DNA of 54,986 bases, taken from positions 1 through 54,986 of the forward strand of contig CAZYCQ010000014.1 in assembly GCA_964645535.1 (NCBI GenBank), in the 5' to 3' direction. The position numbers and the translations under genes are program-made. Source of the stretch: an uncultured archaeon. Its GTDB lineage: Archaea; Asgardarchaeota; Heimdallarchaeia; Heimdallarchaeales; Kariarchaeaceae. Under the pieces are notes generated by a model. It made no database searches. It saw only the letters and a program-made list of their open reading frames with translations, and had not been told where the DNA came from. The first letter of the stretch is position 1, and the number at the start of each line of letters is the position of its first letter. Of this stretch, positions 5,197 through 49,665 are shown piece after piece.

Positions 5197-5207
5197 TCAG
5201 CCGACCC

Positions 5208-6185
5208 CTATAGTTCCTTACCGCATACTCCACAATGCCTGAAGTTTTTTGGAAGACCCTTAGCTCCGCAAGATTGACAAGTTTTTGATGGAGGGCCCCA
5301 CATCAATTCAGAAGACCCACCATCTCTTGCAATTTCTCGGATCATTCGATAGTTGGGAGGACGTTTCTCAACGAAGGCAGTCATCCCTTCATATGGTTCC
5401 CAATTGGCATAGTGCAGTGTCAACCATTCCTTGGCATGGTTGATGGTTTGATACCATGAGAAATTTTTCCAGAAGTTGACCTGTTCTTTTGTATATCGGC
5501 TACATTCAGGGAACTTTTCAACGAGTTTTGCAGCCATTTTGTCCACAGCGGCATCCAATTCCTCGTAAGGAACAACTTGATTGACCAAGCCCCATTCCAT
5601 TGCCTTCCTTGCAGGAATAGGTTCGTTGAGAAAGAGGATTTCTCTTGCCCGCCTGTCACCGACAATGATTGGAAGCCATTGAGTCGCACCCCCTGCGGCA
5701 ACAGAGCCGACCCTTGTTCCGACTTGACGAATTGTCGCATGTTCCGCGGCAATTGCAAGATCACAGGCCATGTTCCATTCATTTCCCCCTCCAGCAACAA
5801 TTCCATTGATTCGGGCAATAGTGGGTTTACCAATGTTTCTGAAACGATCATGTGCCTCAACAAAAAGGGACATCCATTTGTAATAGTCTCTTGGTTTTTG
5901 GGTGAAGATACTTTGGTATTCTTTGACATCCCCACCTGTGCAAAATGCCTTGTCTCCTGCACCAGTAAGTATCACAACAGCTACTCCATCATCCCACATG
6001 GCATCCAAAAAAGCCTGAGACATTTCACGTAATGTTTCAGTTGAATAAGCATTGTAAACATGCGGACGATTGATTGTCACCTTTGCGACAAATTTGTCTC
6101 TATCCTTTTCATAGATTATTTCCTTGAAATCGTATTCTTCAGCATCCTTTGGTTGGAATTTCTCCTTGAATGTGTAGTCACTCAT
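5208..6185 (-). CDS. oah: 6-oxocyclohex-1-ene-1-carbonyl-CoA hydrolase (crotonase fold, ring opening)
   Basis: AFCTGGDVKEY, AGGGNE, QVGTRVGS-x-AAGGATQWLP, and a C-terminal CxxC...CxxC (CQSC...CGVC) as in Oah/BzdY/BamA. Located in the bcr cluster. Confidence 0.85.
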   Translation of the reverse strand: MSDYTFKEKFQPKDAEEYDFKEIIYEKDRDKFVAKVTINRPHVYNAYSTETLREMSQAFLDAMWDDGVAVVILTGAGDKAFCTGGDVKEYQSIFTQKPRDYYKWMSLFVEAHDRFRNIGKPTIARINGIVAGGGNEWNMACDLAIAAEHATIRQVGTRVGSVAAGGATQWLPIIVGDRRAREILFLNEPIPARKAMEWGLVNQVVPYEELDAAVDKMAAKLVEKFPECSRYTKEQVNFWKNFSWYQTINHAKEWLTLHYANWEPYEGMTAFVEKRPPNYRMIREIARDGGSSELMWGPPSKTCQSCGAKGLPKNFRHCGVCGKEL

Positions 6186-6198
6186 AATGGTTACCTCT

Positions 6199-6999
6199 TT
6201 AATTTATGTTTTTGATTTTTTGGAGTCGTTGAAAACCAAGACGTGCTGCACCAATGGCAGCGGAGAAGTGTGCATTCGGATCGGAGATGACTTCATGATC
6301 CAGAACCTCATCCAATGCCTTTTTCATGGCAGGCATGTGAACCAAACCACCTGCCAAAAATACAGGGGCATCCAGCTTCACTCTTTTCAAGAGGGTTCCA
6401 GCTCGATCTGCAATACTCATGAATACACCCATCAGAATATCTTCCACAGGAATCCCTTGCGACACATGGTTGATGATTTCGGTTTCAGAAAGCACTGCAC
6501 AAACACTTGATATTTTCTGGGGGTTCGTACTTTTCATGGCGGTTTCGGAAATCCGATCCATAGGGACGACCAAGTATCGTGAACATCGTTCGATGAAACG
6601 TCCGCTGCCTGCGGCACATCGTTCATTCATCTTGAATTGCACAATCTTGCCCCGCTCATCTATCCGGATGGCACGTGAAGACTGCGTACCGATATCCAAA
6701 ACGAGTGTGGGAAGATACTCATCATAGACAAATTTTGCCCCGCGACCGGTGGTAGTTAGATCACTGATCTGGATCTGTCTTTCATCCATCATATATCGTC
6801 CATAACCGGTAGAAGCGATGTAATCAATATCATCCCTAGAAAGTTTGGCTTTCTCAATCATTTCATTTAGAATTCGTGTTGCCATTTTACCGGGGGATCC
6901 TTTGGTGGGATGAATGGATCGGACAAGGATCTTTTCATTATCCTCAAGAAGAATCCCCTTTGTGGAACCGGTACCGATGTCAATCCCAGCCGTAATCAT
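6199..6999 (-). CDS. bcrD: Benzoyl-CoA reductase ATPase subunit D (BcrD/BadG)
   Basis: ASKHA motifs GIDIGTGSTK, STGYGR, LDIGTQ; cluster Cys in NERCAAGSG and SVCAVLSE. Confidence 0.82.
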   Translation of the reverse strand: MITAGIDIGTGSTKGILLEDNEKILVRSIHPTKGSPGKMATRILNEMIEKAKLSRDDIDYIASTGYGRYMMDERQIQISDLTTTGRGAKFVYDEYLPTLVLDIGTQSSRAIRIDERGKIVQFKMNERCAAGSGRFIERCSRYLVVPMDRISETAMKSTNPQKISSVCAVLSETEIINHVSQGIPVEDILMGVFMSIADRAGTLLKRVKLDAPVFLAGGLVHMPAMKKALDEVLDHEVISDPNAHFSAAIGAARLGFQRLQKIKNIN

Positions 7000-7823
7000 G
7001 GTTTCACCTCCATTGGCATGAATGCAGGATCATTTCCTTTTTCAAGTTCTTCTAATGCGAATAGAGCACCACCAATTGCACCGAACCATTGGGACAGGGG
7101 AGAGACATTGATTTTTCTTCCCAACCTATCTTCAAGTGCACGTACCATGCCCGTATTCCTTGAAACCCCTCCGGTGAAGGTGATCTCGTCTACAATCCCG
7201 ACCCTTCTCATCAATGAGATCGATCTTTCTGCAATGGAATAATGGAGGCCATTGACAATGTCTTCTGGTTTACGACCCCGTGCCAGTTGATTGGAAACTT
7301 CCGTTTCCGCAAAAACAGTACAGGTACTGGTTATCTTTACAGGTCTTTTGGATTTTTCCGAAATCGGACCCAAATCACCAACGGAGAAACCCAGTGCATC
7401 AGCACAGACATCCAAAAATCTCCCAGTCCCAGCGGAACACTTGTCATTCATGCTGAAATCAATGATTTCACCGTTCTCTCCAAGACGGATTGCCTTTGTG
7501 TCTTGCCCACCAATGTCAAGAGTGAGCCGGGTTTTGGGGAAAATGAATTGTGCACCCTTTGCATGGCATGAAATCTCAGTGACGATCAATTTTCCGAAAC
7601 GAACTTTTAATCTCCCATAACCGGTACCTGTAATGAGGGCAACCTGATCGCGATTGATTCCTGCATCTTCACAGGCTTTGAGGAATGCTGTTTCAGCGTC
7701 TTCAGCCACTCTCGGAGAAACATCCTGCAATGATTTTCCGATAATGTTCCTTTCAGCATCCAATATGATCGCTTTTGCGGTAGTACTCCCTACATCTACG
7801 CCTGCAACATATTCTGCCTTCAT
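6996..7823 (-). CDS. bcrA: Benzoyl-CoA reductase ATPase subunit A (BcrA/BadF-like, short form)
   Basis: GVDVGSTTAK, TGYGR, EISCH, DIGGQDTK, NDKCSAGTG, STCTVFAE. Confidence 0.82.
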   Translation of the reverse strand: MKAEYVAGVDVGSTTAKAIILDAERNIIGKSLQDVSPRVAEDAETAFLKACEDAGINRDQVALITGTGYGRLKVRFGKLIVTEISCHAKGAQFIFPKTRLTLDIGGQDTKAIRLGENGEIIDFSMNDKCSAGTGRFLDVCADALGFSVGDLGPISEKSKRPVKITSTCTVFAETEVSNQLARGRKPEDIVNGLHYSIAERSISLMRRVGIVDEITFTGGVSRNTGMVRALEDRLGRKINVSPLSQWFGAIGGALFALEELEKGNDPAFMPMEVKP

Positions 7824-7827
7824 TGTC

Positions 7828-9078
7828 TCACCTTTTCATCTTCAATGCCTCGAAAAAGGCATCAACTCGATTGAGAATTTGTGCTTCTGCCCAATATCGA
7901 GGGTCTTGGTGGTCTGATTCCACATAAAGGGCAGGATAACCAAGTTCGTTGATCACATAGTCCCGAAGATCACCCTGCCCTGCTGTGAAACTTCGACAAC
8001 TTTTGATCCCGTGAATGACCAAGGCATCGGCCTGAAAATCCTTGAGATATCTTTTGATGGTTTCTCGCCGGAAATCCCATGAAAGATTGCAATAACTGAA
8101 GATGCTGTAGCGGGCAATGCTTTCCCATGGGTTTGAAGGATCGTGCCGCAATTCAGGAAGATCAAACATTCCGCCAACTTTTGGATAGGTGGCTGCGACT
8201 GATACTGCATTCCATTTCTTGAACATATTCCAGAATGAACGATAGCCAGGATATGGGGGAACCCCCTCAATGACAGTCCTGAATTCCTCATTTTCAATGG
8301 GTCCAATCCCATGAGCCACGCGTTCGTCCAGTTCCATATTCAGAAGTTCGTAGAAGTCTGCCGCTTCTTTTGTACCTCTTAATGCATTAATGGGAAACAT
8401 GTAAAAGATAGATTCGAAATATGCATCGATTGGAGAAGGTACATGTTTTGCCATTTCAAAACTTCTTCCCCATCCATCTTCGGCTTTTCTGGAGTATGTC
8501 AACACCTCCTTGAGTCGGTTCATATCGAATGTGATATCGAACAGTTGTTCGATCTTCTCTACCATTTCCTGAAGCTGACCGATTATGTATTCAATATCCT
8601 CTTTCTGTGGGTCATTGAATCTATGATATGGTACATCAAGCATGATCAAGGGAACCTTATAGAATTCTGCCAATGCTTCCCACCATTTGGCATAGACAGA
8701 ACACCCAGAATAATTGCAAACCAAAAGATCGGGTCTGGGAATCTTTCCCATATCACTTTCTCCTCCCGATAGATGTGTAAGTCCAATATCTGTCTTGACA
8801 TAACCGCAAACATCCAAACCATATCCAATGGATTCAGCCTTTAGGATATATTGTAATGATTGGTGCCTAATAGCCATTGTAAGAGCTGTGATTTCTGGCA
8901 TGTAAACTTGGAAACCCAAGGCTCTCAGAAGTTCAGCAGGATTTCCACCTACAAAAAGGTAGACCACAGGTTTGGTTACATCCTGCCGATAGAAATCTCG
9001 GACAAGTTGCCTCTGCAATTTCCGTGCAGCACCTGCATATTTGAGATCTTTTTTTTCGGAAGCAACTATAGTTTCCAT
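7828..9078 (-). CDS. bcrB: Benzoyl-CoA reductase subunit B (BcrB/BadE)
   Basis: DVCGYVKTD, YSGC, ATYPKVGG...RHDP, IKSCRSFTAGQ; HgdD/BcrB family with Thauera/Rhodopseudomonas-type signatures (recalled). Confidence 0.85.
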   Translation of the reverse strand: METIVASEKKDLKYAGAARKLQRQLVRDFYRQDVTKPVVYLFVGGNPAELLRALGFQVYMPEITALTMAIRHQSLQYILKAESIGYGLDVCGYVKTDIGLTHLSGGESDMGKIPRPDLLVCNYSGCSVYAKWWEALAEFYKVPLIMLDVPYHRFNDPQKEDIEYIIGQLQEMVEKIEQLFDITFDMNRLKEVLTYSRKAEDGWGRSFEMAKHVPSPIDAYFESIFYMFPINALRGTKEAADFYELLNMELDERVAHGIGPIENEEFRTVIEGVPPYPGYRSFWNMFKKWNAVSVAATYPKVGGMFDLPELRHDPSNPWESIARYSIFSYCNLSWDFRRETIKRYLKDFQADALVIHGIKSCRSFTAGQGDLRDYVINELGYPALYVESDHQDPRYWAEAQILNRVDAFFEALKMKR

Positions 9079-9098
9079 AGTTCAATCACAAATTCGTA

Positions 9099-9106
9099 CT
9101 ATTTAA
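9099..9106 (-). promoter_or_regulatory. TATA-like box for an internal promoter upstream of bcrB
   Basis: Minus strand TTAAATAG about 28 nt upstream of the bcrB ATG, within the 193-nt bcrC-bcrB gap. Confidence 0.4.
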
Positions 9107-9271
9107 CTCCTTAGTGCCCCGAATATCGAAAATTACTATACCAAAATTACTTTATTTGCGTTTCTCCGAAGCCGAAAATCGCACGAGGTGCACTAACTTC
9201 ATGGGAGGATGGGTAGATAGGAAGATGTCCAAAACATGTGTTTTTGAGAAATGGTTTACTAAAAGTAAGAT

Positions 9272-10438
9272 TCAATCGAATAGCAGAGATTCCACAAAGG
9301 TTTCCAATGAAAGCCGGATATTTTCATATCCAGAACCTCGTTCTTCAAATTCAATGTGCACACTTGGGATTCCTTGTTCCTGCAATGCCTGTTGTTGCAA
9401 CACCAAGTCATCCAAAGCAGGTTCACAGAATTTGGCAGTCAGAAAGATAACTCCATCGGCATTGGCGTTTTTGACGCGTTCTAGAATTACAGCTCCTTTT
9501 TCACCTTCGTGAAATCTGGTAGCAGTTTTTGCACCTGCCTTTAGGTAATGGGCAGCTAAGGCTTCAAGAGGGTTCTCATCAACATTGACAGGGGTCTGAT
9601 AGAATCTTCGGCCAATCATAAAATCATCATCAATAACATAGCACCCAACCTGTTCAATCAGCCGAATAATGTCAATTGGGGGCTGTTCACAGAAATTGCC
9701 GGTAACCACCACTCGGATTGCGTCTTTTTTAGTTCGAGAACTCTTTTCGTATTTAGTCAACTTTTCTAGAAGCAGGGCATTGTGCTGAACAACATCCAAG
9801 TTTGATCCAATTCTCATAGTCAGATAAAGATCATCGAGGGGAACCTTCCAAGGCTCAGTTGACCGGAGTTCGTATAACCTGCGGTAGAGCTCCCGATTTT
9901 CATTGTAGAGTGTAATTGCATTCTTCAGTCGTTCCATATCAAGATCTTCCTCTGGGAAAAGAGTCTTTACCATTCTTTGGAATTCATTTGTCAGGTAAGG
10001 AATCGAGTGTTGTGATTGGACGTTTTGAGCCAGATGGAGCATGTAAACTGGTTTCGAAATTCTTCGGCTGAAAATTCCAGAAAGATTGCGTGCCACATCA
10101 CAGATAAAGGGGAATACAAAACCGTCAAATGCATTATTGAATGGTTCATGTGATAGAAGAAGTTCTGTAGTTGATTTGGATATACTACAAATGAACGACC
10201 CGAGAATGGCATCTGCGTGGCTGATCGAAATCTCCTCCCCTCCCCCATAGATATTTACCGGAAGATGCCCAAATGCATAAATCAATTCGTGAGGAACATA
10301 AACTGGAAAGGTAGCAATGGCCTTTTTTCCAGGATGGGCTTTCTTCCACTTGTGAACCTCCTCAAAATCTATATCATAGGTAATTTCTTGCAGATTTGTT
10401 AGGAGAGGAACAATATCTGGAGATGCAGAAGTGGTCAT
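9272..10438 (-). CDS. bcrC: Benzoyl-CoA reductase subunit C (BcrC/BadD)
   Basis: SFICSI, FPFICDVARNLSG, GNFCEQPP, KFCEPAL, ETFVES. Confidence 0.85.
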   Translation of the reverse strand: MTTSASPDIVPLLTNLQEITYDIDFEEVHKWKKAHPGKKAIATFPVYVPHELIYAFGHLPVNIYGGGEEISISHADAILGSFICSISKSTTELLLSHEPFNNAFDGFVFPFICDVARNLSGIFSRRISKPVYMLHLAQNVQSQHSIPYLTNEFQRMVKTLFPEEDLDMERLKNAITLYNENRELYRRLYELRSTEPWKVPLDDLYLTMRIGSNLDVVQHNALLLEKLTKYEKSSRTKKDAIRVVVTGNFCEQPPIDIIRLIEQVGCYVIDDDFMIGRRFYQTPVNVDENPLEALAAHYLKAGAKTATRFHEGEKGAVILERVKNANADGVIFLTAKFCEPALDDLVLQQQALQEQGIPSVHIEFEERGSGYENIRLSLETFVESLLFD

Positions 10439-25771: not shown

Positions 25772-26662
25772 CTACCAGTCCCGTCCCTCAAGAAGTTTGA
25801 CGGGAACAAAAGGAAGATCACCCACTTGGGGATCAAAATCAGGACTGTCTGCCATCATTTCCTTTGTAGGAATGAAGAGCTCCCTTGTTTTGATATCGAA
25901 CCCATAATGGTTTCCTAGTACATGGATACGGACATCTGTGACACTGAATGGTTTGTTATCAGGAAGTGAGGCAATGTTGGTATGTGAAATGCTACTTCCA
26001 TCCACAACAATAATCTGACGGCTCCCCATAACCTGAATCATGCTTTGTCCCTCCTTGAAAAGGATACCAGTGTTTTCTGAAAGTCCAAGCCCAATTGTGC
26101 CAGGATTGAGGCTCACTACATTCAGGAGGCGGGTGATTCGGCCTCTTTTGATAAAATGTGAATCAATGACTGCATTTGAGATAAAACCCAAGCCTGGACT
26201 GAGGTCAACACTTCCCTTGAACATCACATCCGATTTCCCTCCGGCAATCATGGTGGAACTCATAGCGGAGGCACCAGCAGAAGTCCCGGCGATGAAGACA
26301 CCCCGAGACCGTGCGCGGTTGATGGCTTGCATCAAGGGGGATCCTCCTAAAAGGGAGGTAATGCGCAATTGATTTCCTCCTGTAAAAAATATTCCAGTAG
26401 ACCGGTCAATACGATCGATCAGCCGAGGGTTTTCGGTATGATCCCTGCGATCAATGACATAATATTCCACATCGTTCGACAGCTTTGAGAAAAGAGATTC
26501 ATACAAGGGACCAACCTCATTGGCATAATCGGATGCAGTAGGCAGAATGGTGATGACACTGTCCTCGCCGCCAGAACCTTTGATGAATGCATCTACCAAG
26601 GGGTTTTCTGGGGTCAGTTCCATGGCTCCACCGATAGCCAAGTAAGTCGTTACATCAGCCAT
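25772..26662 (-). CDS. cphB: Cyanophycinase (peptidase S51)
   Basis: IGGA, LPTAS, FFTGGNQLR, catalytic GTSAGA, DSHF-x2-RGR-x2-RL, GLSENT. Confidence 0.92.
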   Translation of the reverse strand: MADVTTYLAIGGAMELTPENPLVDAFIKGSGGEDSVITILPTASDYANEVGPLYESLFSKLSNDVEYYVIDRRDHTENPRLIDRIDRSTGIFFTGGNQLRITSLLGGSPLMQAINRARSRGVFIAGTSAGASAMSSTMIAGGKSDVMFKGSVDLSPGLGFISNAVIDSHFIKRGRITRLLNVVSLNPGTIGLGLSENTGILFKEGQSMIQVMGSRQIIVVDGSSISHTNIASLPDNKPFSVTDVRIHVLGNHYGFDIKTRELFIPTKEMMADSPDFDPQVGDLPFVPVKLLEGRDW

Positions 26663-26750
26663 TTACAAACCTTGCAATGAATTCACCCTTATTATACCTA
26701 GAGATTCTTTTACTTCAAAATAGTTGATATTTTCCTGCTTAGAGAGGTAT

Positions 26751-26763
26751 AAAAGTTTTATTT
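26751..26763 (+). promoter_or_regulatory. BRE/TATA-like promoter of cphA
   Basis: AAAAG followed by TTTTATTT (26756-26763), 29 nt upstream of ATG 26785; no SD, consistent with a leaderless transcript. Confidence 0.5.
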
Positions 26764-26784
26764 GGAGAAGATTGAGAAAACAAA

Positions 26785-29577
26785 ATGGATTTGGATCTTC
26801 AACTAGAGATTGTTTCAAAAAGGGTCTACCGGGGACCTAACCTTTACCATTATGATAAGGCAATGTTGGTTGTTGTCGATATCGGAGATCTTGAGGATTT
26901 TCCCTCAATGAAGCTTAAGGGGTTCAATGAACGTTTATTGAAGTTGATTCCCTCTTTGGACACACATACATGTAGCCTTGGGGTTCCGGGAGGGTTCATC
27001 AGAAGACTTACAGAGGATGAAGGCACGTGGATGGGTCATATTTTTGAACATGTGGCTATCGAAATACAGAATTTGGCGGGAATTGATGTTTCCTTTGGAA
27101 AAACGAGGCAAAGAAAGGGCGAGAAAGGAAGAACTGGAAAAGAAAGTGTCTATAACGTTGTTTTTGAATATAAGAATGAAGAAACTGCATTATCTGCTAC
27201 GACACTGGCTCAACGGACGGTCAATTATTGTGTAGACCCCAAGCAGGTTCCTGATTTTGATTTTGAAAAAGAATTGAAGGAAGTCATTGAAATTGCACAG
27301 GAGTTCGCCTATGGCCCTTCTACCGGGGCAATTGTTGCAGAGGCAGAACGAAGAGGGATTCCAACAATACGACTTCAAAAACGATGGTCTCTTGTTCAAT
27401 TTGGATGGGGAAATAGGCAAAAGAGAATATGGGCATCCACTAGCTCCATGACACCATATATTGCTACAGAAATAGCTCAGGAAAAGGAATTGACATTACA
27501 GATGCTTTATGATGTTGGAATCCCGGTGCCAAGGGGGGGAGAGGTTCGAACATATGAGGGTGCATTGGAAGAGGTAAGGAGGATTGGCTATCCAGTTGTC
27601 ACAAAACCTTCAGATGTTTCTCATGGAAGAGGGGTGTATCTAAACATCAGGGATGACAAAGCCTTGAAGAAAGGATTTGAGATTGCAAAAGAATATTCTA
27701 GAGACGTGATTGTTGAACAATACATTGAAGGTAACGATTATAGGGTATTGGTCATCAATGGTGAATTTGTTGCCGCAGCTCAGCGAATTCCAGCCCATGT
27801 CATCGGAGACGGAGAGCATACCATTGAAGAGCTGGTGGAAATCGTCAATCAGGATCCAAGACGAGGAATCGGCCATGAAAAAGTTTTGACACAAATCGTT
27901 ATTGACCAGCCATCCCTAGACCTCCTTGAAGCGCAAGGATTAACCCTTTCCAGCATTCCCGAAAAAGGAAGATTTGTTCAGTTGAAATCAACAGCAAACC
28001 TGTCAACTGGAGGAACTGCAATTGACGTGACAGACATTATCCATTATGACAATATCCGGCTTGCAGAAAGGGCAGTCAAGACTATTGGATTGGATATTGC
28101 GGGAGTTGATATCATTGCGGAAGATATCTCCAAACCAATTCTTGCACAAAGAGGGGTCATCATTGAAGTCAATGCCGCACCGGGTTTGAGGATGCATCTT
28201 GAACCCACAGAAGGAACGCCAAGAAATGTTGCAAAACCAATTGTCGACATGTTGTTTCCAGATGGAGATGCCGGTCGAATTCCGCTCATTGCGGTCACAG
28301 GAACCAATGGAAAAACCACTGTTTCAAGATGGATTGCTCATGTTTTGAAACTGGCAGGGAAAAAGGTCGGTCTAACCACCACAGATGGAATCTATATTGA
28401 TGGAGAACTGCAATATAGTGGTGATTGCACGGGACCATGGAGTGCAAAGGCAGTTCTGAAAGATCCCACAGTTAATTTTGCAGTTTTAGAGACTGCAAGA
28501 GGCGGAATCATCCGGGAAGGATTAGGCTGGGATTTCTGTGATGTGGGATGCCTTCTGAATGTTTCTGAAGACCATCTAGGTCTTGGAGGTGTTAAAACCC
28601 TAGATGATTTAGCTGATGTGAAGGCTGTGGTCTTGGATCAGGTGAAGAAAGATGTTGGATACGGGGTAATCAATGCAGATGATCCATTAGTCATGGAACG
28701 TCGAGGAAGAATAAGAGGAAAGACAGTGTTAATATCACTTGATTACAGGAATCAGGACTTGCAGGAACATGTGGAAACCGGAGGAGATGCAGTCACCATT
28801 ACCCCAAATGGTGTTATCCAATTGATTCGAAACAATTCTCAAACACCAATCCTCCATGTTAAGGAAATTCCAGCTTGTTACAATGGTCATGCAGTATTCA
28901 ATATTGTCAATGCCATGTTTGTTGTTGGAGCCACCTTTCCTTTTGTTTCAGTTGAAGACATTAGAACAGGACTTTCTTCCTTCAATACCAGTTTCAGCCT
29001 CAGTCCGGGAAGGATGAACATTGAATATGTCAAAGGTGCAAGAGTTGTCATTGACTATGGCCATAATCCCGAAGCATTGAAGGCACAGATTCAGTTGATT
29101 GAAGGATTGCACAAAGACCAAAACCATGTAGGAAGGAAAGCCATTGTCTTTGGTATGCCAGGAGACAGACCAAACCAAACGATCATCAATGCGGCAAAGA
29201 TTGTTGCCAATCATTATGACAGGTATTTTCTCAAGGAAGATTGGAATCTTCGAGGACGGAAATCAGGTGAGGTTCCGCAATTGATTGCAGAAATTCTCAT
29301 GAAAGAAGGGGTTTCCAATAAAGCCATTGAAATCTTTGCAGGAGAAAAAAATGAACTTGATGCTGTAACTGCACTTTATGAGTGGTTACAGCTAAATGAT
29401 CTTGCTGTTATCCAAGCAGATGATATTCCGAAGGTCCGCCATCATTTACTTTCAAGGTTGGCAAAAATGAAAGACACAACATTTGAGACAATGCCAGTAC
29501 ATGAACCAAGGGATGAGCATGAATTCAATTATGAAAGAATAGCGGAATACACTAAAAGAGATGAACCATCAGATTGA
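26785..29577 (+). CDS. cphA: Cyanophycin synthetase (CphA1)
   Basis: N domain RGPN, HTCS...GTWMGHIFEH, GPST. ATP-grasp KP-x3-SHGRGV, EQYIEGNDYR, ANLSTGG, EVNAAPGLRMH. Mur-ligase-like VTGTNGKTT, LETARGG, EDHLG, PGRMN, DYGHNP, PGDR. Confidence 0.97.
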   Translation: MDLDLQLEIVSKRVYRGPNLYHYDKAMLVVVDIGDLEDFPSMKLKGFNERLLKLIPSLDTHTCSLGVPGGFIRRLTEDEGTWMGHIFEHVAIEIQNLAGIDVSFGKTRQRKGEKGRTGKESVYNVVFEYKNEETALSATTLAQRTVNYCVDPKQVPDFDFEKELKEVIEIAQEFAYGPSTGAIVAEAERRGIPTIRLQKRWSLVQFGWGNRQKRIWASTSSMTPYIATEIAQEKELTLQMLYDVGIPVPRGGEVRTYEGALEEVRRIGYPVVTKPSDVSHGRGVYLNIRDDKALKKGFEIAKEYSRDVIVEQYIEGNDYRVLVINGEFVAAAQRIPAHVIGDGEHTIEELVEIVNQDPRRGIGHEKVLTQIVIDQPSLDLLEAQGLTLSSIPEKGRFVQLKSTANLSTGGTAIDVTDIIHYDNIRLAERAVKTIGLDIAGVDIIAEDISKPILAQRGVIIEVNAAPGLRMHLEPTEGTPRNVAKPIVDMLFPDGDAGRIPLIAVTGTNGKTTVSRWIAHVLKLAGKKVGLTTTDGIYIDGELQYSGDCTGPWSAKAVLKDPTVNFAVLETARGGIIREGLGWDFCDVGCLLNVSEDHLGLGGVKTLDDLADVKAVVLDQVKKDVGYGVINADDPLVMERRGRIRGKTVLISLDYRNQDLQEHVETGGDAVTITPNGVIQLIRNNSQTPILHVKEIPACYNGHAVFNIVNAMFVVGATFPFVSVEDIRTGLSSFNTSFSLSPGRMNIEYVKGARVVIDYGHNPEALKAQIQLIEGLHKDQNHVGRKAIVFGMPGDRPNQTIINAAKIVANHYDRYFLKEDWNLRGRKSGEVPQLIAEILMKEGVSNKAIEIFAGEKNELDAVTALYEWLQLNDLAVIQADDIPKVRHHLLSRLAKMKDTTFETMPVHEPRDEHEFNYERIAEYTKRDEPSD

Positions 29578-29655
29578 CAAATTTATCAAATTACGATTAC
29601 ATTAGCCGACCGACTATTCGAAGGACAAATAACTGATACATATATGAGACGATCT

Positions 29656-30012
29656 ATGGTAGACCTTGAAGGAACACCAAAAGTCATATTTGAAGAAATA
29701 ATGGATGAAATTGATGAAGAAATCAGAGATGCACTTGAATCCCTTTTGGCAGAACAAGTTCTTGCAGAAACCATCAGAAAAATCCAAGAAAATACCGCCA
29801 ACGATGTAGAAAGCATAATCAGGGAGCATTACTCTGAAGATATGAGAGGCGTGCACAAGCTTATTTTGGGAGAGAAGGCCTCAAGAGTGGTTGCAAAGGA
29901 AGCAAAAAAGGAATTGGTAAGCCTCACGGAACGTATCCTTCGCAATTCATTTGATCTTTTAGATGAATTGAGGAATGAGATCATTGGAGAAGTCTTTGAA
30001 GAAACCGAGTAG
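29656..30012 (+). CDS. Small, highly acidic alpha-helical hypothetical protein downstream of cphA
   Basis: About 118 aa, Glu/Asp-rich amphipathic helices; co-directional with cphA (start 29644 or 29656). Confidence 0.7.
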   Translation: MVDLEGTPKVIFEEIMDEIDEEIRDALESLLAEQVLAETIRKIQENTANDVESIIREHYSEDMRGVHKLILGEKASRVVAKEAKKELVSLTERILRNSFDLLDELRNEIIGEVFEETE

Positions 30013-35255: not shown

Positions 35256-36305
35256 ATGTGGGTTACCCATTTTACACGATCTTTTGTTGCAGCCATACTC
35301 CTTTATCTTGCAATGGTGCAAGTATTGGGGAGGGAAGACTACTTTTCAAAATTCATAGTCCATCTTGCAAATATGATTGTTTTTGCAATGACATTTGGTT
35401 TGATAATGCCCAGCATCGGCATTAATAATTCCATTGGTTTTGAGCCAGAACCCATGAGCCAGTATATTCCACTGGTAATTCTGTCTGTTCTGATCTACAT
35501 TGGAAGTTTCTATGCCATTATGAGTTTAACGGATCCGTATTTGAACCCTATAAGGGAGCTAAATGCAAATCTGGAAAAAAGAAAATTCAAAGCGGAGTTT
35601 TCTGAAGAAATATTGAAAGATTCCTTTTTTGGACCGATCTATCACCTCCTTCAAGAAATGCTTCGTGGTATGGAATTGTTGATTAGTGAAGCATCAAAAG
35701 TGGTGAACACAATAGAGGTTTCTTCAGAAAGCCTTGCAAAAGAGACTCAGGAAATTGCCAGCATCATTGAGGAGGTAGCTTCCACCTCAGATTCTGCAAG
35801 TCAAGCCGCAAATACACAAGCAATACAGATATCTGAGCTGTTAGAAGAGGTAATGCAGAGTTCTTCGAGAATTGGAAAGGTTGTTGAAGATATCAGTTTG
35901 GCAACAGATGCAGTTAGAGAAGTTTCCATTCAAACAAGCATAATTGCACTCAATGCAGCAGTGGAGGCATCAAAAGCAGGAGAAGCCGGCAAAGGCTTTG
36001 CAGTGGTTGCAGATGATATACGAAGATTGTCAGAAGAATCAAGAAAATCGGTCGATACCATCAGTGAAATATCGTCAAATATTATGAAGGAATTGGATAG
36101 CCTTTTTGTCCGAATTCAGGAAAAGGTAGAAAATGTTGCAACTATATCTGAAGAGACAGCCGCATCATCGGAGGAGATATCAGCATCTGCACATGAGATA
36201 AAGACAACAATTGAAAGAATTGCACAAGATACAAGAAAATTGTCTGATGAAACTGAGAGACTGAATACGGCGATGAAATCACTGCTTTTGCAATCTATGG
36301 ACTGA
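35256..36305 (+). CDS. Methyl-accepting chemotaxis protein (possibly extends to ATG 35088 through an in-frame TGA)
   Basis: MCP hairpin tip QTSIIALNAAVEASKAGEAGKGFAVVADDIRRLSE; N-terminal TM helices. Confidence 0.9.
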   Translation: MWVTHFTRSFVAAILLYLAMVQVLGREDYFSKFIVHLANMIVFAMTFGLIMPSIGINNSIGFEPEPMSQYIPLVILSVLIYIGSFYAIMSLTDPYLNPIRELNANLEKRKFKAEFSEEILKDSFFGPIYHLLQEMLRGMELLISEASKVVNTIEVSSESLAKETQEIASIIEEVASTSDSASQAANTQAIQISELLEEVMQSSSRIGKVVEDISLATDAVREVSIQTSIIALNAAVEASKAGEAGKGFAVVADDIRRLSEESRKSVDTISEISSNIMKELDSLFVRIQEKVENVATISEETAASSEEISASAHEIKTTIERIAQDTRKLSDETERLNTAMKSLLLQSMD

Positions 36306-44234: not shown

Positions 44235-44912
44235 ATGTCACTCGTTGCTGTTTTGGTTGAAGCTTTAATCCTTGCATCTTCAGGACTGATTTCAGTAGGC
44301 TCAATCCTTATCGTAATTCTTCTACTCATCTCAGAGAGAGGATTGAAGAATGGGATTGGGTATGTAGCTGGTTACATTTTCGGATATTCTCTGATCTCAA
44401 CTGGGATGATTCTTCTTCAACAGCGTACGGCAAATCAAGGCGGATCAAGTAGTAATATGACATTCAACTATATTTCGATATTTTTTGGATTGGTATTACT
44501 CTATTTGGCTTTCAAAAATTTCAGGAAACAACCGGATCTCGAGAAGAAAGAAGATCCAAAATTGTTTCGAATACTAGACGGAATTACACCTGTTAAGGCA
44601 TTTTCTTTGGGATTGGTTGTGACAATACTGAATTTCAAGAATTTGGCCCTTTTTCTGACATCGATCTCTGTTGTAGCCTTTAGCGGATTGTCAATTTCGG
44701 AGAAGATTTTCGCGGCTGTTCTCGTTATCATAGTGTTCACTATCTCCGTAATGACACCGGTCTTCATCTACCTACTCTTCCCTACTCGGGGAAGGGAGAT
44801 TTTAGAAACGATCAGAGATGCTCTTAAGCGACATAGTCGACCCATTTCCATATGGGGACCATTAATTTTTGGTGTAATCCTATTGTTCAGAGGAGGAATG
44901 GCAATATTATGA
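44235..44912 (+). CDS. Gap/Sap family (LysE-superfamily) membrane protein
   Basis: About 6 TM; ILIVILLLIS-x-RG-x2-NG-x2-Y-x2-G and LNFKNLAL resemble the Gap/Sap family pattern. Confidence 0.7.
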   Translation: MSLVAVLVEALILASSGLISVGSILIVILLLISERGLKNGIGYVAGYIFGYSLISTGMILLQQRTANQGGSSSNMTFNYISIFFGLVLLYLAFKNFRKQPDLEKKEDPKLFRILDGITPVKAFSLGLVVTILNFKNLALFLTSISVVAFSGLSISEKIFAAVLVIIVFTISVMTPVFIYLLFPTRGREILETIRDALKRHSRPISIWGPLIFGVILLFRGGMAIL

Positions 44913-47569
44913 AAAAAGAAAAACTTGTTTTGAAATTTAGTGAAGTTGATGCTTCAGACCTACCCTTGGTGGGAGGAAAAGGTGCCAATTTAGGAGAGAT
45001 GACTCAGGCACGATTCCCCGTTCCACAGGGGTTCTGTGTTACAACAAAAGCATATGAGTTGTTTATTTCCCAAAATGGCATTGGAGATGAGGTGAATGAC
45101 CTTCTCAAGGGTATTTCCACATCAACCCTTGATGAAATCAGGACAGTGGGTGAAAAGATAAGACAAAAGCTGACGGAACTACCCATGCCAGAAAAGATCA
45201 AGAACGAGGTTAAGAGGTATTGGGAAGAATTGGGAGTGGAAAAGCCCTTAGCAGTGAGGTCGAGTGCAACTGCAGAGGATCTCCCTGACGCATCTTTTGC
45301 TGGACAACAGGAAAGCTATCTCAATATTCTCGGATTTGACCAATTGATGGATGCCATCAAAAAATGCTGGATTTCACTTTTTACAGATAGGGCCATAGCC
45401 TATAGAATTACCAACAATTTTGACCATAGGGAAGTAAAGTTGTCTGTGGTAGTCCAAGAGATGGTCATGGCGGAGAAATCGGGCATCCTTTTTACGGCAG
45501 ATCCCTTAACCGGTCATCGTCTAACCTTGACAATTGATGCAAGCTATGGTTTGGGCGAAGCTCTTGTCAGCGGGATTGTTGAACCAGATACATACCGGAT
45601 CGATAAACGAGATCTGAAGATTGTGGATCAAATAATCGGGAAGAAGGAAATTGCAATTTTCCCCACCAAAGAAGGTGGTACGGAACAGAAATTTCTGGAC
45701 AAGGAGTTAAGTCGAAAACCCGTTTTGAATAAAGAAGAAATCAAGGAACTTGCAGAACTCGGAAAGAAAGTTGAAAAGCATTATGGGACACCTCAAGACA
45801 TCGAGTGGGCGATTATGGACAAGAAACTCTATTTATTGCAGACACGTCCCATCACCTCCCTTTATCCAATCGAAGGACTGCAAAGGCCAGATGGAAGATT
45901 CAGTATCTTCTTCAGCATGGGACATCAGCAGGGAATGACAAGACCAATGACTCCATTAAGCATTTCTGCAATTAGGGTTCTTGCACCGATTGGAGATCAA
46001 CAAGAGAGTGAATACATCCGAGTAGCCGGGAGCAGACCTTACGCAGACATAACACTACCACTCAAACATAGACTCATGCGGAGGGTGGTGATGAGAGTTG
46101 TATACCAATTTGATGTTTTAGCACCCGAAGCATTAAAGCAACTAATGAAGAGGAAGGAATTCAAGAAGGTAAAGGGGAAAAGGGTTCCGCTCAGAAATTA
46201 TAGGTTCATTTTCAGAAATATTAGGAGAGTATTTTTCGCCCTTTGGTTTAGGGATCTCACGGGAATAGTTTCGAGAACCAATAATCTTTGCGATCATTTT
46301 GTACAACAAATTTCAGATGACTTGAATGGAATTCCACCGACGAAGGAGAAAATAGAGGCAATTACCAGAATCCTCCCCTCTATACCAGAAATTTTCCTCA
46401 ATTGGGTACCAGAAGCGGCTGCCGGAATTGCAGCTACGCGATTGCTTGAAAAATGGGCGAAGAAATGGCTGGATGAGGAACATGTAGAGGCACTGACATT
46501 AGGAATTCCAGGCAACGTTGTCAACGAGATGAATATGGCAATTAGCGACCTTGCATCGATCGCGAGAAAAAACCCACAGCTAGTTAAGGCGTTCGATCGA
46601 TTAGAAGATGACGCAATTTCATGGCTTAATGAAGCAAGGAAAATTGACGGCACTGCCGAGTTCTTTGAGGCATGGGATAGTTTTATTGAATTCTACGGAT
46701 GCAGAGGTCCATCTGAAATTGACATCGCGCAACCTCGCTGGTATGAAAACCCTCTGCCTGTGTTGAAGGTAATCCATGAACACATCCTGAGAGAGGAGAT
46801 CAGTCAAAGAGACCGATATGAAGAATACGTCCGAAATAGAGAGGAAGCTTACCGAATGCTGATGGAAAAGGCTCGAAAGGGGATTTTTGGTCGGATGCGA
46901 ACAAGAAGGTTCCGAAGAATGTATCATGTAATGACGGAAGCCGGAGGTATGCGTGAACACCACAAGTTCCTAGTCATCCGTATTTTAAGAGTGTTCAAAG
47001 AACATTTCAAAGAAGTGGCCAAAGAGTTGGTAAGACAAGGGAAACTAGAACACGAAGAGGATATTTGGTTCCTTACTTGGCCAGACTTGCAAGAAATTTG
47101 GGAGAATGATGCAACTGATTGGAAATCAATTGTCACAGAAAGGAAAAAGGATTTCGAACGCCATCAGCATCTCAAGCCTCCACTGATAATAACCAGTGAC
47201 GGTGAAACCCCAGTTGTCCAGTTCAAGGTCAAAGATGCGCCGGAAGGGGCAATTTTGGGCAATCCAGTCTCTCCGGGAATTGTTGAAGGAACCGTGCATG
47301 TCATTCGTGATCCACACCAGGAAAGCTTAGCTCCAGGTGAAATATTAGTCGCAGAATTTACAGACCCAGGATGGACCCCTCTGTTCATCAACGCTAGCGG
47401 GCTGGTGCTGGAGGTTGGAGGAGCCTTGACACATGGTGCGGTTGTTGCAAGAGAGTATGGGATACCTGCAGTTGTGGGAGTGAGAAATGCGACAACCCTG
47501 CTCAAGACAGGCCAAAAGGTACGAATTGACGGGAACCGAGGGATTATTGAAATAATAGAACACGAATAA
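44909..47569 (+). CDS. Rifamycin-phosphotransferase-like PEP-synthase-family enzyme
   Basis: N-terminal ATP-grasp (VGGKGANLGE, AVRSSATAEDLPDASFAGQ, QDIEW, LQTRPIT); central domain with YGCRGPSEIDI-x2-PRW; C-terminal His swivel TDPGWTPLF...THGAVVAREYG. ATGA overlap gives a start at 44909. Confidence 0.88.
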   Translation: MKKEKLVLKFSEVDASDLPLVGGKGANLGEMTQARFPVPQGFCVTTKAYELFISQNGIGDEVNDLLKGISTSTLDEIRTVGEKIRQKLTELPMPEKIKNEVKRYWEELGVEKPLAVRSSATAEDLPDASFAGQQESYLNILGFDQLMDAIKKCWISLFTDRAIAYRITNNFDHREVKLSVVVQEMVMAEKSGILFTADPLTGHRLTLTIDASYGLGEALVSGIVEPDTYRIDKRDLKIVDQIIGKKEIAIFPTKEGGTEQKFLDKELSRKPVLNKEEIKELAELGKKVEKHYGTPQDIEWAIMDKKLYLLQTRPITSLYPIEGLQRPDGRFSIFFSMGHQQGMTRPMTPLSISAIRVLAPIGDQQESEYIRVAGSRPYADITLPLKHRLMRRVVMRVVYQFDVLAPEALKQLMKRKEFKKVKGKRVPLRNYRFIFRNIRRVFFALWFRDLTGIVSRTNNLCDHFVQQISDDLNGIPPTKEKIEAITRILPSIPEIFLNWVPEAAAGIAATRLLEKWAKKWLDEEHVEALTLGIPGNVVNEMNMAISDLASIARKNPQLVKAFDRLEDDAISWLNEARKIDGTAEFFEAWDSFIEFYGCRGPSEIDIAQPRWYENPLPVLKVIHEHILREEISQRDRYEEYVRNREEAYRMLMEKARKGIFGRMRTRRFRRMYHVMTEAGGMREHHKFLVIRILRVFKEHFKEVAKELVRQGKLEHEEDIWFLTWPDLQEIWENDATDWKSIVTERKKDFERHQHLKPPLIITSDGETPVVQFKVKDAPEGAILGNPVSPGIVEGTVHVIRDPHQESLAPGEILVAEFTDPGWTPLFINASGLVLEVGGALTHGAVVAREYGIPAVVGVRNATTLLKTGQKVRIDGNRGIIEIIEHE

Positions 47570-48351: not shown

Positions 48352-49665
48352 CTAAATGTTGGCTTGCAGGAGGTGATCATGGATAGATCTCCCCAATTCG
48401 AGGGATCGTTCAGGGCTGATGAAAATAAGAAAACTACGTTTGTCCGGAAGCGGTATCGACCACAAGTCATGAAACCATTCCAGATCATGGAATTCCGAAG
48501 GGGAACTGCCATATGCAAAGATTGCAGCCGCATCTCGGTACACCAAATCCAAGTACGGAAACATTTTGGCAACATTGTTGAAATGGGTTTGGTGGCTTCT
48601 TTCAAATGCAACAATAACCTTTCCGCCAATGAGGAGCAGACCATATGTTGGAAGGCCATCATTGGTGAATTCCTTCAGTAGTTGTTTTCGAAATTCAGAT
48701 GCAGTCTTGGCGGAAGAAAAGAAAATTGTTGCGAGCACCAAGTCTTTTTTGATGGATATGACGGGGAGAATTGACTGTTCATCCGAAGAAGAGCTGATAA
48801 GGGTGTAATTTGTTGGATCGTAAAGGTTGCGCACATAGAGAGGAATTTTTTTGGTTCTCAATGGGGTTAAAGCCTTGGGATGTATCAATTTTGCACCGAA
48901 ATGGGTCAAGAGTTCTGTGGAATCATAATCAAGAAAGGACAGGGGTTTGGCGTTCGGAATAAGTTTAGGGTCTGCGGTCATGAAGGCTGGAACTTCTTTC
49001 CAGATTGTCAAGCTTTTGGCCTCCACAAGATTGGCGATTGATGCAGCGGAATAGTCGGTTCCAGAACGGCCGAGAAGTGTGACATTGCCGTCTTTATCAC
49101 CACCGTAGTATCCAGGGATGATGATTGGTTTCTTCTTTTCAAGGAGCGGTAACAGGTTTTGTATCACCAATTCCTTGGATTCCTCGTGTTGAACGGAAGC
49201 CTCATAATATACCCCATTGGTTCTCAAAACATTCACGGGATCCAATAGGAATGGAGATAGATTCTTTAAGGCAAGCATAAGGATATACGATGAGAGTCTT
49301 TCTCCGAAGGAAAGAACATAGTCACGCATTCGGGAACTGGTTTCTCCAGTTAGCACCATTCCCTTGATGAGTTTTTCGAGGTCAATGAATAGTTGGTCGA
49401 TTTGCCCCAAGGAATTTTGAGAGGCAGAACCCCCTAGAATTTGCAAGTGAAATGTTTTGAGATCGGCAATTTCATTAGAAATCTGACTGGCGGATGTAGA
49501 TTTCAACAAAGAATGCAAGGAATCAGTCACACCATAAAATGCAGAAGGAACAATAATCATGGGAGGTTCAATGTTTTGGAGGATTTTCAAAACCAACTGA
49601 AATGAGGACGTAGTTCTGAAACATGCGCCGCCAAATTTGTGCACTTCGACGTTATGGGATGACAT
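48352..49665 (-). CDS. Aspartate kinase family protein (divergent regulatory region)
   Basis: KFGG, SA-x2-GVTD, SFGERLS, TLLGRSGTDYSA, MTADP, FGAKLIHP. Confidence 0.85.
   Translation of the reverse strand: MSSHNVEVHKFGGACFRTTSSFQLVLKILQNIEPPMIIVPSAFYGVTDSLHSLLKSTSASQISNEIADLKTFHLQILGGSASQNSLGQIDQLFIDLEKLIKGMVLTGETSSRMRDYVLSFGERLSSYILMLALKNLSPFLLDPVNVLRTNGVYYEASVQHEESKELVIQNLLPLLEKKKPIIIPGYYGGDKDGNVTLLGRSGTDYSAASIANLVEAKSLTIWKEVPAFMTADPKLIPNAKPLSFLDYDSTELLTHFGAKLIHPKALTPLRTKKIPLYVRNLYDPTNYTLISSSSDEQSILPVISIKKDLVLATIFFSSAKTASEFRKQLLKEFTNDGLPTYGLLLIGGKVIVAFERSHQTHFNNVAKMFPYLDLVYRDAAAIFAYGSSPSEFHDLEWFHDLWSIPLPDKRSFLIFISPERSLELGRSIHDHLLQANI

Follow-up and report, generated by a model that had tools for sequence, protein, structure and literature searches.

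An uncultured archaeon of the Heimdallarchaeia carries adjacent, intact genes for cyanophycin synthetase (cphA) and cyanophycinase (cphB). We consider it very probable (about 0.85) that they form a genuine, chromosomal cyanophycin module descended from an old bacterial transfer, the operon having since been split and cphA now standing on an archaeal promoter. This reading is built on the identity of the two genes, their intact motifs, their residence in an archaeal genome, their phylogenetic position, and the match and conservation of the cphA promoter. The window, i.e., the whole stretch of 54,986 nt that was analyzed, lies on contig C14 (CAZYCQ010000014.1) of genome G000 (GCA_964645535.1); other G numbers denote the related genomes that were compared.

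Results

Both genes of the module are complete and lie head-to-head. The cphB gene (25772..26662, minus strand) encodes a 296-aa cyanophycinase, and the cphA gene (26785..29577, plus strand) encodes a 930-aa cyanophycin synthetase 1 with N, ATP-grasp G, and Mur-ligase-like M domains; the 122-nt spacer between them (26663..26784) holds both promoter candidates. These are exactly the ORFs, orientation, and spacing that an earlier note on this DNA had described, and both proteins exceed their equivalog cut-offs, with every catalytic motif that was checked in place. The end of the module, placed by that note at 30012, has to be moved back, as cphA itself ends at 29577 and the remainder includes an unrelated 122-aa ORF (29644..30012, plus strand) with a marginal Pfam match only (TrwB_AAD_bind, 20.9 bits). 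G003, which is of the same genus and lacks cphA and cphB, has a gene with 56% amino acid identity to this ORF; no homologue was found beside cphA in G001, G002, G005, G008, or G009. By these comparisons, the ORF is a real gene and does not belong to the cyanophycin module.

CphA matches the cyanophycin synthetase equivalogs TIGR02068 (1098.7 bits; cut-off 850) and NF010623 (1067.5 bits; cut-off 877), with Pfam domains Cyanophycin_syn (residues 29–148), RimK/ATP-grasp (231–338), Mur_ligase_M (504–661), and Mur_ligase_C (742–851). A single alignment joins its residues 9–854 to residues 3–835 of SuCphA1 (7LG5) at 742 bits and ~48% identity. The M-domain P-loop GTNGKT occupies residues 506–511 (TGTNGKTT, 505–512). 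A metallopeptidase-like N-domain site, Cx19HxxEH, generates primers and marks primer-independent enzymes (PMC9262961). All four of its residues are present here (C63, H85, E88, and H89), with a spacer of 21 rather than 19 residues (C63-x21-H85xxE88H89), and primer independence is therefore uncertain. CphA is 79–81% identical to same-genus orthologs, 61–68% to those of other Kariarchaeaceae genera, 66% to that of LC_2, and 50% to that of LC_3; the closest bacterial CphA is at most ~50% identical.

CphB exceeds the cut-off of the cyanophycinase equivalog TIGR02069 (216.7 against 126.6 bits) and aligns nearly full length with 7UQV (175 bits) and also with 3EN0. Its triad of Ser128 (in GTSAG), His169 (in DSHF), and Glu196 (in GLSENT) falls at the same alignment positions as in both structures. 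By inspection only, no signal-peptide-like hydrophobic stretch was seen at the N-terminus MADVTTYLAIGGAMEL, and the N-terminus MADVTTYLAIGGAMELTPEN likewise appears to lead straight into the conserved core. We thus class the enzyme as the intracellular type as opposed to the extracellular CphE. CphB is 72% identical to its G002 ortholog (dS saturated, dN 0.22) and 28–40% identical to the CphBs adjoining the nearest bacterial CphAs. Relative to G002, both cph genes have saturated dS with dN of 0.17–0.22, and the genes are intact across four genera, a pattern that points to purifying selection.

The later steps of cyanophycin use would be encoded elsewhere in the genome. As the earlier note had observed, the window holds no isoaspartyl dipeptidase: no match to this family was found among 47 ORFs scanned against Pfam, with three ORFs of 128–178 aa left out. 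A candidate IaaA-type isoaspartyl peptidase, unlinked to the cph genes, is present at G000:C13:54008-54910 (PF01112, Asparaginase_2, 334 bits); it scores 236.7 bits against the beta-aspartyl-peptidase equivalog NF007589, below the cut-off of 567. Enzymes of the IaaA type are housekeeping enzymes. No IadA was found in the genome, which does encode an arginase (TIGR01229, 279.8 bits; cut-off 227.6) and an agmatinase (193.5 bits; cut-off 174.3).

The close homology of these enzymes suggests a route into and out of the polymer. Using ATP, CphA1 would add Asp through its G domain and Arg through its M domain to give multi-L-arginyl-poly-L-aspartate, and the metallopeptidase-like site of its N domain would probably supply its own primers. 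In the cytoplasm, the Ser-His-Glu peptidase CphB would release beta-Asp-Arg dipeptides, the IaaA-type enzyme from the other contig would split them, and the arginine would be catabolized via arginase and agmatinase. An alternative is that the genes are archaeal and serve no internal store. The product of CphA would then differ, being either short oligomers only or an Asp backbone bearing some other basic amino acid, or CphB, together with IaaA, would scavenge environmental cyanophycin. CphA1 enzymes do accept lysine in part, and cphB and cphA are not co-transcribed here. Scavenging has some precedent, as some bacteria use a cyanophycinase without a synthetase (PMC10206079) and such a role has been proposed for Culexarchaeia (PMC9723716). 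However, the lack of a signal peptide on CphB argues against extracellular scavenging. Two further observations count against this alternative: cphB shares a contig with cphA in each of the five Kariarchaeaceae genomes having both, and CphA is full length and retains all three active-site motifs at 48% identity to a characterized enzyme. We judge the absence of an internal store to be improbable.

The CphA phylogeny places the archaeal proteins among bacterial ones. In the LG+C20 tree, Kariarchaeaceae and Hodarchaeota/LC_3 form one clade among bacterial sequences (100% SH-aLRT), which shares its half of the tree with sequences of the Chloroflexota, Acidobacteriota, and Gemmatimonadota types; this nesting agrees with the horizontal acquisition from bacteria that the earlier note had suggested. 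Kariarchaeaceae also form their own clade in the CphB tree, which singles out no bacterial sister, and neither tree identifies a bacterial donor. The locus is no recent island: it stems from an old transfer, and its genes have ameliorated fully. It is very unlikely that cyanophycin genes entered Archaea only once, in ancient times, and then spread among archaea as a single ancestral CphA clade with no separate Heimdallarchaeial acquisition. A FastTree phylogeny of 144 sequences does group all Asgard CphAs with the group containing Thermoplasmatota (95% local support), but the LG+C20 tree puts the Heimdallarchaeial clade in its other half, and the AU test (LG+G4, 38 rows) rejects a joint archaeal clade (delta lnL 63.7, p-AU 0.0098), which makes the CphA of Thermoplasmatota and of two other Asgard families (f25 and f31) a lineage separate from the present one. 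The old bacterial transfer would thus be common to Kariarchaeaceae and LC_3/Hodarchaeota-type archaea, and the Heimdallarchaeial acquisition would be independent of the branch with Thermoplasmatota, f25, and f31. We infer the direction and number of these transfers; neither is directly seen.

The contig belongs to the archaeal genome in which it was binned. The bin encodes a TATA-binding protein (TBP) and two Snf7/ESCRT-III proteins, and no sigma-70 gene was found in it. C14 is the 7th closest of 115 contigs to the tetranucleotide centroid of the bin; the cph windows fall at the 24th–39th percentile of distance, and no tetranucleotide break was found at the cph locus. An archaeal TATA element at about −30 precedes 38% of C14 ORFs, against 37% in the rest of the genome and 4–8% at a control position. 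Counterparts of cphA, cphB, and 12 more window genes, at 62–96% amino acid identity, lie together on one contig of G002 (WAKA01000020, "Ca. Heimdallarchaeota archaeon"); two weaker matches to window genes also occur on it. Contigs bearing homologs include ones of 221 kb, 348 kb, and 1.13 Mb, labelled Heimdallarchaeota, Kariarchaeaceae, or LC_2. The host is thus an Asgard archaeon, as the flanking genes had suggested, most likely of the Kariarchaeaceae (LC_2 lineage). That C14 is mis-binned bacterial DNA, or a chimera joined at the cph locus, was one refutation that the earlier note had named, and its probability is now negligible. In its favour are the fragmentation of the MAG (176 contigs, with contamination estimated at 1%), the absence from the window of a universal archaeal marker, tRNA, or rRNA, and the mostly bacterial occurrence of cph genes otherwise. 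Against it, the unbroken signature is among the most typical of the bin, the contig's own genes show archaeal promoter geometry, the module recurs in independent MAGs from other studies (in G002 with many flanking genes), orthologs reside on contigs as long as 1.13 Mb, and the nearest bacterial CphA is no more than ~50% identical.

The module is accessory and its gene order is variable. The cphA gene occurs in 6 of 12 Kariarchaeaceae genomes, i.e., half of the family, and in none of the 71 genomes of the other families of the class. G003 is 93% complete and has neither gene, so the module is dispensable. Where both genes are present, cphB and cphA point away from each other in G000, G001, and G002 and toward each other in G008 and G009. 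Co-orientation, which the earlier note took to be usual, was found in 17 of the 17 nearest bacterial loci. In the present locus, the two genes are separate transcription units; the bacterial cphB-cphA operon would have been broken up after its arrival in the archaeal lineage. The two genes may be regulated independently, and their separate promoters may give the reciprocal control that the earlier note had proposed.

The cphA promoter is a strong match to the archaeal BRE/TATA pattern of this genome. Across the genome, TATA-like hexamers are most frequent at −30 to −28 (161 per bin against a background of ~18), and in the matrix learned from the genome's own promoters the first base falls at −36. 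The cphA element TAAAAGTTTTATTT (26750..26763, plus strand) scores 8.13, the 99.99th percentile among all window positions, with its T-tract starting at −29, where the earlier note had placed it. Its first base lies at −35 from the ATG, the modal position of the genome, and a site as good as this occurs there in only 3.6% of 1292 ORFs. The element fits the archaeal layout of an A-rich BRE leading into a T/A-rich box some 26–30 nt before the start. Within 130 nt of the orthologous cphA genes, the best site starts at −35 in G002, −34 in G001, and −36 in G005, and three of the four orthologs checked retain the element. We predict that cphA is read off this promoter as a leaderless or near-leaderless mRNA. 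The element is nearly palindromic, scoring 8.22 on the minus strand at −98 from the cphB ATG. For cphB, the candidate TCTAGGTATAATAA (26689..26702, minus strand) has a matrix score of 3.0 and its first base at −40, ~4 nt upstream of the modal position; alone, it is weak evidence, since 37% of ORFs match or beat this score at the modal position (−38 to −34). Sites of cphB orthologs lie at −34 in G009 (score 4.4) and −36 in G008 (score 4.3). The BRE/TATA that the earlier note described for cphA stands, and cphB has a weak candidate.

Discussion

Cyanophycin is still called a bacterial polymer in reviews and surveys. The main genome survey covered bacterial genomes only (PMC10206079), and archaeal cyanophycin degradation is without an assay to date (PMC9723716). 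The present module is not the first report of cph genes from Heimdallarchaeia, and its novelty is modest. Bulzu et al. (2018, bioRxiv 10.1101/385732) stated in one sentence, with no analysis, that LC_2 and LC_3 encode cyanophycin synthesis and degradation, and NCBI records are already titled [quoted passage not shown]. With its intact enzymes, which are under purifying selection, and its well-supported archaeal context, the locus makes a clean candidate for asking whether Asgard archaea bank nitrogen and arginine-derived energy as cyanophycin, a matter that bears on feast/famine survival in slow-growing sediment organisms. The origin of the Heimdallarchaeial clade apart from the other archaeal clade implies that archaea took up the trait more than once. 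The locus also exemplifies a bacterial operon domesticated in an archaeon, which was split and reshuffled in order and which gained, and then kept, a leaderless BRE/TATA promoter.

A broader scenario is possible, though we hold it doubtful. The genes may have entered Heimdallarchaeia once, before the Kariarchaeaceae/Hodarchaeales split, and may serve today as a true polypeptide reserve of nitrogen, carbon, and energy, while the near-palindromic BRE/TATA of the 122-nt spacer may confine assembly of the transcription machinery to a single direction at any moment. If so, synthesis and breakdown would be mutually exclusive, cyanophycin metabolism would have been in the gene pool of the lineage of the presumed archaeal ancestor of eukaryotes, and this would be the first polypeptide reserve of its kind shown in the archaeal domain.

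CphA shares with SuCphA1 of Synechocystis sp. UTEX2470 (7LG5/7TXU/7TXV) the N-G-M architecture, the GTNGKT P-loop, the ATP-grasp, and the C...HxxEH residues; it differs in the Cys...His spacer, which is two residues longer, a 7-residue loop insertion in the N domain, and an acidic C-terminal tail of ~45 residues. Unlike bacterial and cyanobacterial CphA1, it has an archaeal host, and its gene would be transcribed singly from a BRE/TATA, probably leaderless, outside any cphBA operon. The CphBs of Synechocystis (3EN0) and of 7UQV/7UQW have the same peptidase S51 fold, the Ser-His-Glu residues in GTSAG, DxHF, and E, and no signal peptide, and here the gene is transcribed divergently from cphA. 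The cph genes of LC_2 and LC_3 are of the same family, come from the same archaeal group, and fall in one CphA clade with the present locus. In contrast, the present locus belongs to another genus and has the two genes directly adjacent and head-to-head, whereas those of LC_2 are apparently on separate contigs (32.7 and 60.6 kb). Thermoplasmatota, f25, and f31 likewise have intact archaeal cphA genes of patchy distribution. A co-oriented cphB accompanies cphA in the one f25 locus checked, and the genomes of f31 have, in tandem with cphA, a second and diverged cphA-like gene, a paralog that the present locus lacks.

Cyanophycin genes and their archaeal host

Contig C14 of the archaeal genome G000 carries an intact pair of cyanophycin genes. 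The cyanophycinase gene cphB (25772-26662, minus strand) encodes a protein of 296 aa and the cyanophycin synthetase gene cphA (26785-29577, plus strand) one of 930 aa, and in the ORF list their start codons face each other with 122 nt in between. Both products exceed the NCBIfam equivalog cut-offs of their families (cyanophycinase TIGR02069, 216.7 bits against 126.6; cyanophycin synthetase TIGR02068, 1098.7 bits against 850). CphA has the expected Pfam architecture (Cyanophycin_syn N domain, ATP-grasp, Mur_ligase_M, and Mur_ligase_C), and its residues 9-854 align with the solved SuCphA1 (7LG5) at 742 bits; CphB aligns nearly end to end with the solved structures 7UQV (175 bits) and 3EN0 (153 bits). 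A script located the diagnostic CphB residues Ser128 (GTSAG), His169 (DSHF), and Glu196, and the CphA P-loop GTNGKT at residues 506-511. Together, these results confirm the earlier note, which had described an intact cphB and a 930-aa CphA1 placed head-to-head over 122 nt. The conserved core of CphB begins at the N-terminus without a signal peptide, so the enzyme is of the cytoplasmic type. Between congeners, dN of the cph genes is 0.17-0.22 and synonymous sites are saturated, hence no dN/dS ratio is given; the combination indicates purifying selection on both genes. Downstream of cphA, a 122-aa ORF (29644-30012) has only a marginal TrwB_AAD_bind match and is 56% identical in G003, a congener without cph genes.

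The G000 bin is archaeal and Asgard-like, containing a TBP gene and two Snf7/ESCRT-III genes above the Pfam cut-off, and no sigma-70 gene was found in it. The MAG (3.62 Mb, 176 contigs, 89.4% complete, 1.0% contamination) yielded no SSU rRNA, and the window, which is all of C14, holds metabolic genes only, with no tRNA, rRNA, Rfam match, or universal marker. Mis-binning or chimerism of C14 is effectively excluded by composition, promoter geometry, synteny, and long contigs, four independent lines that tie the contig to the G000 organism. In composition, only six of the 115 contigs lie nearer than C14 to the tetranucleotide centroid of the bin, and 5-kb windows spanning the cph genes fall at the 24th-39th percentile of tetranucleotide distance, which means that they bear no island signature. 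The archaeal pattern of TATA-like hexamers near -30 is seen in 38% of C14's own ORFs and 37% of the other ORFs, compared with 4-8% at a control position. G002 (WAKA01000020, 'Candidatus Heimdallarchaeota archaeon'), an independent congeneric MAG, carries on one 32.8-kb contig cphA (79% identical), cphB (72%), the 2-hydroxyacyl-CoA dehydratase operon of the window (75-96%), a subtilase gene (89%), thioredoxin-like, thioesterase, and MFS genes, and another ORF common to the window. The cphA gene also occurs in G001, G005, G008, and G009, which represent three further genera of Kariarchaeaceae. Public CphA homologs at 61-88% identity, named Heimdallarchaeota, Kariarchaeaceae, or LC_2 (a Heimdallarchaeota lineage), come from contigs 221 kb, 348 kb, and 1.13 Mb long, and a cphB homolog is recorded for contigs of these same lengths. 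The host most likely belongs to Kariarchaeaceae, the family of LC_2. The taxonomic assignment that the earlier note had proposed thus finds C14 neither bacterial nor chimeric, and its suggestion of an Asgard host, drawn from the flanking genes, is borne out by TBP, ESCRT-III, the lack of sigma-70, and the synteny with G002.

Distribution and origin of cphA

The cyanophycin module is an accessory trait with a patchy distribution: within the class (83 genomes), cphA is present in 6 of the 12 Kariarchaeaceae genomes (four of six genera) and in none of the 71 that represent six other families, and in the rest of the phylum it occurs in two families. A survey of archaeal genomes, also suggested in the earlier note, covered 400 genomes of the phylum and located cphA outside Kariarchaeaceae only in the Asgard families f25 (three of five genomes) and f31 (two genomes). 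Five of the six cphA-bearing Kariarchaeaceae genomes have cphB, each time on the cphA contig; the sixth offers only a 7.5-kb contig. Both genes are absent from G003 (93% complete, 10 contigs), and a search there for the empty site returned only single-gene matches, the genome being too rearranged to tell gain from loss. Around the cph locus, G003 and the window have hardly any gene order in common, indicating extensive rearrangement inside one genus. Both f31 genomes have a second, strongly diverged cphA-like gene in tandem (L047/L050 on G387:C34; L048/L051 on G335:C4), encoding ~850 aa at 29-30% identity to G000 CphA.

The topology of a better-model tree (LG+C20 with PMSF, 68 rows) and an AU test suggest that archaea took up cphA at least twice. 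In the tree, the CphAs of Kariarchaeaceae and Hodarchaeota/LC_3 form one clade (SH-aLRT 100%) in the half that holds Chloroflexota-, Acidobacteriota-, Gemmatimonadota-, and Planctomycetota-type sequences, and those of f25 and f31 form a separate clade in the other half, beside the Thermoplasmatota group, where P0061 and P0074 are counted as archaeal solely from clustering with a protein named Thermoplasmatota. A single pan-archaeal clade, as in a FastTree phylogeny of 144 CphAs that grouped all Asgard sequences with a set including Thermoplasmatota, is contradicted by the LG+C20 tree and by the AU test (38 rows, LG+G4), which rejects the all-archaeal grouping (delta lnL 63.7, p-AU 0.0098).

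The Heimdallarchaeial cphA is probably old, given an identity of only 50-52% between the Kariarchaeaceae and Hodarchaeota/LC_3 groups of the clade, fully ameliorated composition, and synonymous saturation between congeners. In an exhaustive HMMER search over 1.84 billion cluster representatives, G000 CphA forms its own 50%-identity cluster, with the next representative at most 48% identical. The nearest named bacterial CphAs (45-50% identity) come from Gemmatimonadota, Planctomycetota, Acidobacteriota, Lentisphaerota, Myxococcota, and Chloroflexota, and the exact bacterial donor is not pinned down by the LG+C20 tree. The horizontal acquisition from bacteria put forward in the earlier note agrees with the position of the clade among bacterial-type CphAs, the transfer being an old one and the genes ameliorated. 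Kariarchaeaceae CphB is likewise monophyletic (95%), with a topology within the family resembling that of CphA. A different donor for cphB, raised by best named bacterial matches in Bacillota, is not claimed, as the CphB tree does not resolve the bacterial sister of the family clade. One CphB, P0331, is the sister of this family clade, and P0194 is an LC_3-type CphA (64% identical to LC_3); the two may lie on one 4,481-bp contig, which, if so, would fit joint inheritance of cphB and cphA.

Gene organization and promoters

The pair never stands in the bacterial arrangement in Kariarchaeaceae, and cphA and cphB are therefore separate transcription units there. At the nearest named bacterial loci, cphB is co-stranded with cphA in 17 of 17 cases and immediately upstream of it in 15, as expected from the earlier note, which had given co-orientation as the usual arrangement. 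None of five Kariarchaeaceae genomes shows this order: the genes are head-to-head in G000 (122-nt spacer), in G001 (a Mur-ligase-like ORF in between), and in G002 (4.2 kb in between, with a UbiA-family gene and a gene of no assigned function), and tail-to-tail in G008 and in G009 (an ABC transporter in between). At most of the nearest bacterial loci, a ~570-620-aa M-domain-like gene follows cphA. This third gene (536-622 aa; bacterial loci L025-L041) resembles the CphA M domain in its C-terminal part (30-36% identity), has an unrelated N-terminal region of ~180 aa, and looks like a conserved member of these cphB-cphA operons. The Mur-ligase-like ORF of G001 as a relic of this ~590-aa gene is unsupported, since it resembles every CphA M domain to about the same degree. 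In G001 (C172, locus L020, 5776-7106 and 2206-2610), it is a stand-alone M-domain ORF of 322 aa, continued for ~100-130 aa past a TGA, and the C-terminal end of cphA is also broken by TGA codons; these interruptions may reflect decay or assembly error.

The cphA gene is probably expressed from an archaeal promoter as a leaderless or nearly leaderless mRNA, as supported by the position and conservation of an upstream element. Across 1292 G000 ORFs of at least 200 aa, TATA-like hexamers peak at -30 to -28 from the ATG (161 per 3-nt bin versus a background of ~18), a pattern characteristic of leaderless transcripts from archaeal promoters. An A-rich BRE precedes the peak genome-wide, and a second gene class has SD-like tetramers at about -14 to -9; many G000 genes appear leaderless. 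With a position weight matrix from 160 G000 genes (A-rich BRE at -36 to -32, TTTTAAA at -30 to -24), the highest-scoring spacer site is TAAAAGTTTTATTT (26750-26763; score 8.13, 99.99th percentile of window positions), which begins at -35 relative to the cphA ATG, where only 3.6% of ORFs have an equally good site. Shuffled spacers attain this score on one strand or the other in 16.7% of trials, so the evidence lies in position and conservation: in the 130 nt preceding cphA, the top-scoring site begins at -35 in G002, -34 in G001, and -36 in G005, with differing sequences. The archaeal-style BRE/TATA that the earlier note had described thus holds against a genome-derived matrix.

For cphB, the candidate TCTAGGTATAATAA is weak (first base -40, score 3.0). 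The cphA element is nearly palindromic (TAAAAGTTTTAT, 26747-26763), scoring 8.22 on the opposite strand and lying in the top 0.01% of the matrix on both strands, and could in principle nucleate transcription towards either gene; opposite-strand use would give cphB a leader of ~60 nt with AGGT at -10. As a shared switch the palindrome is a speculative curiosity, because the two head-to-head genes are not directly adjacent in G001 or G002.

Polymer breakdown and other genes of the window

A complete route from polymer to Asp, ornithine, and urea is plausible but only partly supported in G000, given its IaaA-type protein, arginase, and agmatinase. The Asparaginase_2/IaaA-type protein is on contig C13 (PF01112, 334 bits) and scores 236.7 bits versus the 567 required for the beta-aspartyl-peptidase equivalog; arginase (279.8 versus 227.6) and agmatinase (193.5 versus 174.3) exceed their equivalog cut-offs. 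IadA was not found in the genome, and the 47 window ORFs scanned gave no match to isoaspartyl dipeptidase families, as the first reading had reported.

Elsewhere in the window, a minus-strand operon (2930-10438) encodes two HGD-D 2-hydroxyacyl-CoA dehydratase subunits, two BcrAD/BadFG activator ATPases, an enoyl-CoA hydratase, a CoA-transferase, and an SDR. It resembles a module for fermenting amino acids or 2-hydroxy acids, which is of note for an Asgard archaeon. Further genes encode a 349-aa protein with a methyl-accepting chemotaxis signalling domain (35256-36305; MCPsignal, 87.7 bits), which adjoins a UbiA prenyltransferase gene, a 905-aa PEP-synthase/rifamycin-phosphotransferase-like protein (44852-47569; NF004878, 980.7 bits versus a cut-off of 945), and a 437-aa aspartate-kinase-like protein under every equivalog cut-off (48352-49665).

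Relation to known systems

The G000 module is real and is another instance of a kind already noted, not the first. Genes for making and degrading cyanophycin were reported from Heimdallarchaeia LC_2 and LC_3 in a 2018 preprint (Bulzu et al., bioRxiv 10.1101/385732). Cyanophycinase homologs were reported in Culexarchaeia, some Euryarchaea, and Asgard archaea, with experiments lacking (Kohtz et al. 2022, PMC9723716), and a large survey of cph gene clustering covered bacterial genomes only (PMC10206079). We found no paper with further analysis of archaeal cph genes, and public records already name LC_2 and LC_3 proteins. The earlier reading of an archaeal cyanophycin system is right. Three points were not found published: that the Heimdallarchaeial CphA clade arose apart from the other archaeal one, that the bacterial cphB-cphA operon was broken up in Kariarchaeaceae, and that cphA has a predicted conserved leaderless BRE/TATA promoter. 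The locus would be a good candidate for testing predicted archaeal cyanophycin synthesis. A metallopeptidase-like Cx19HxxEH site generates primers in primer-independent CphA1s (PMC9262961), and the motif C63-x21-H85xxE88H89, located by script in the N domain of G000 CphA, corresponds to this site with a spacer two residues longer.
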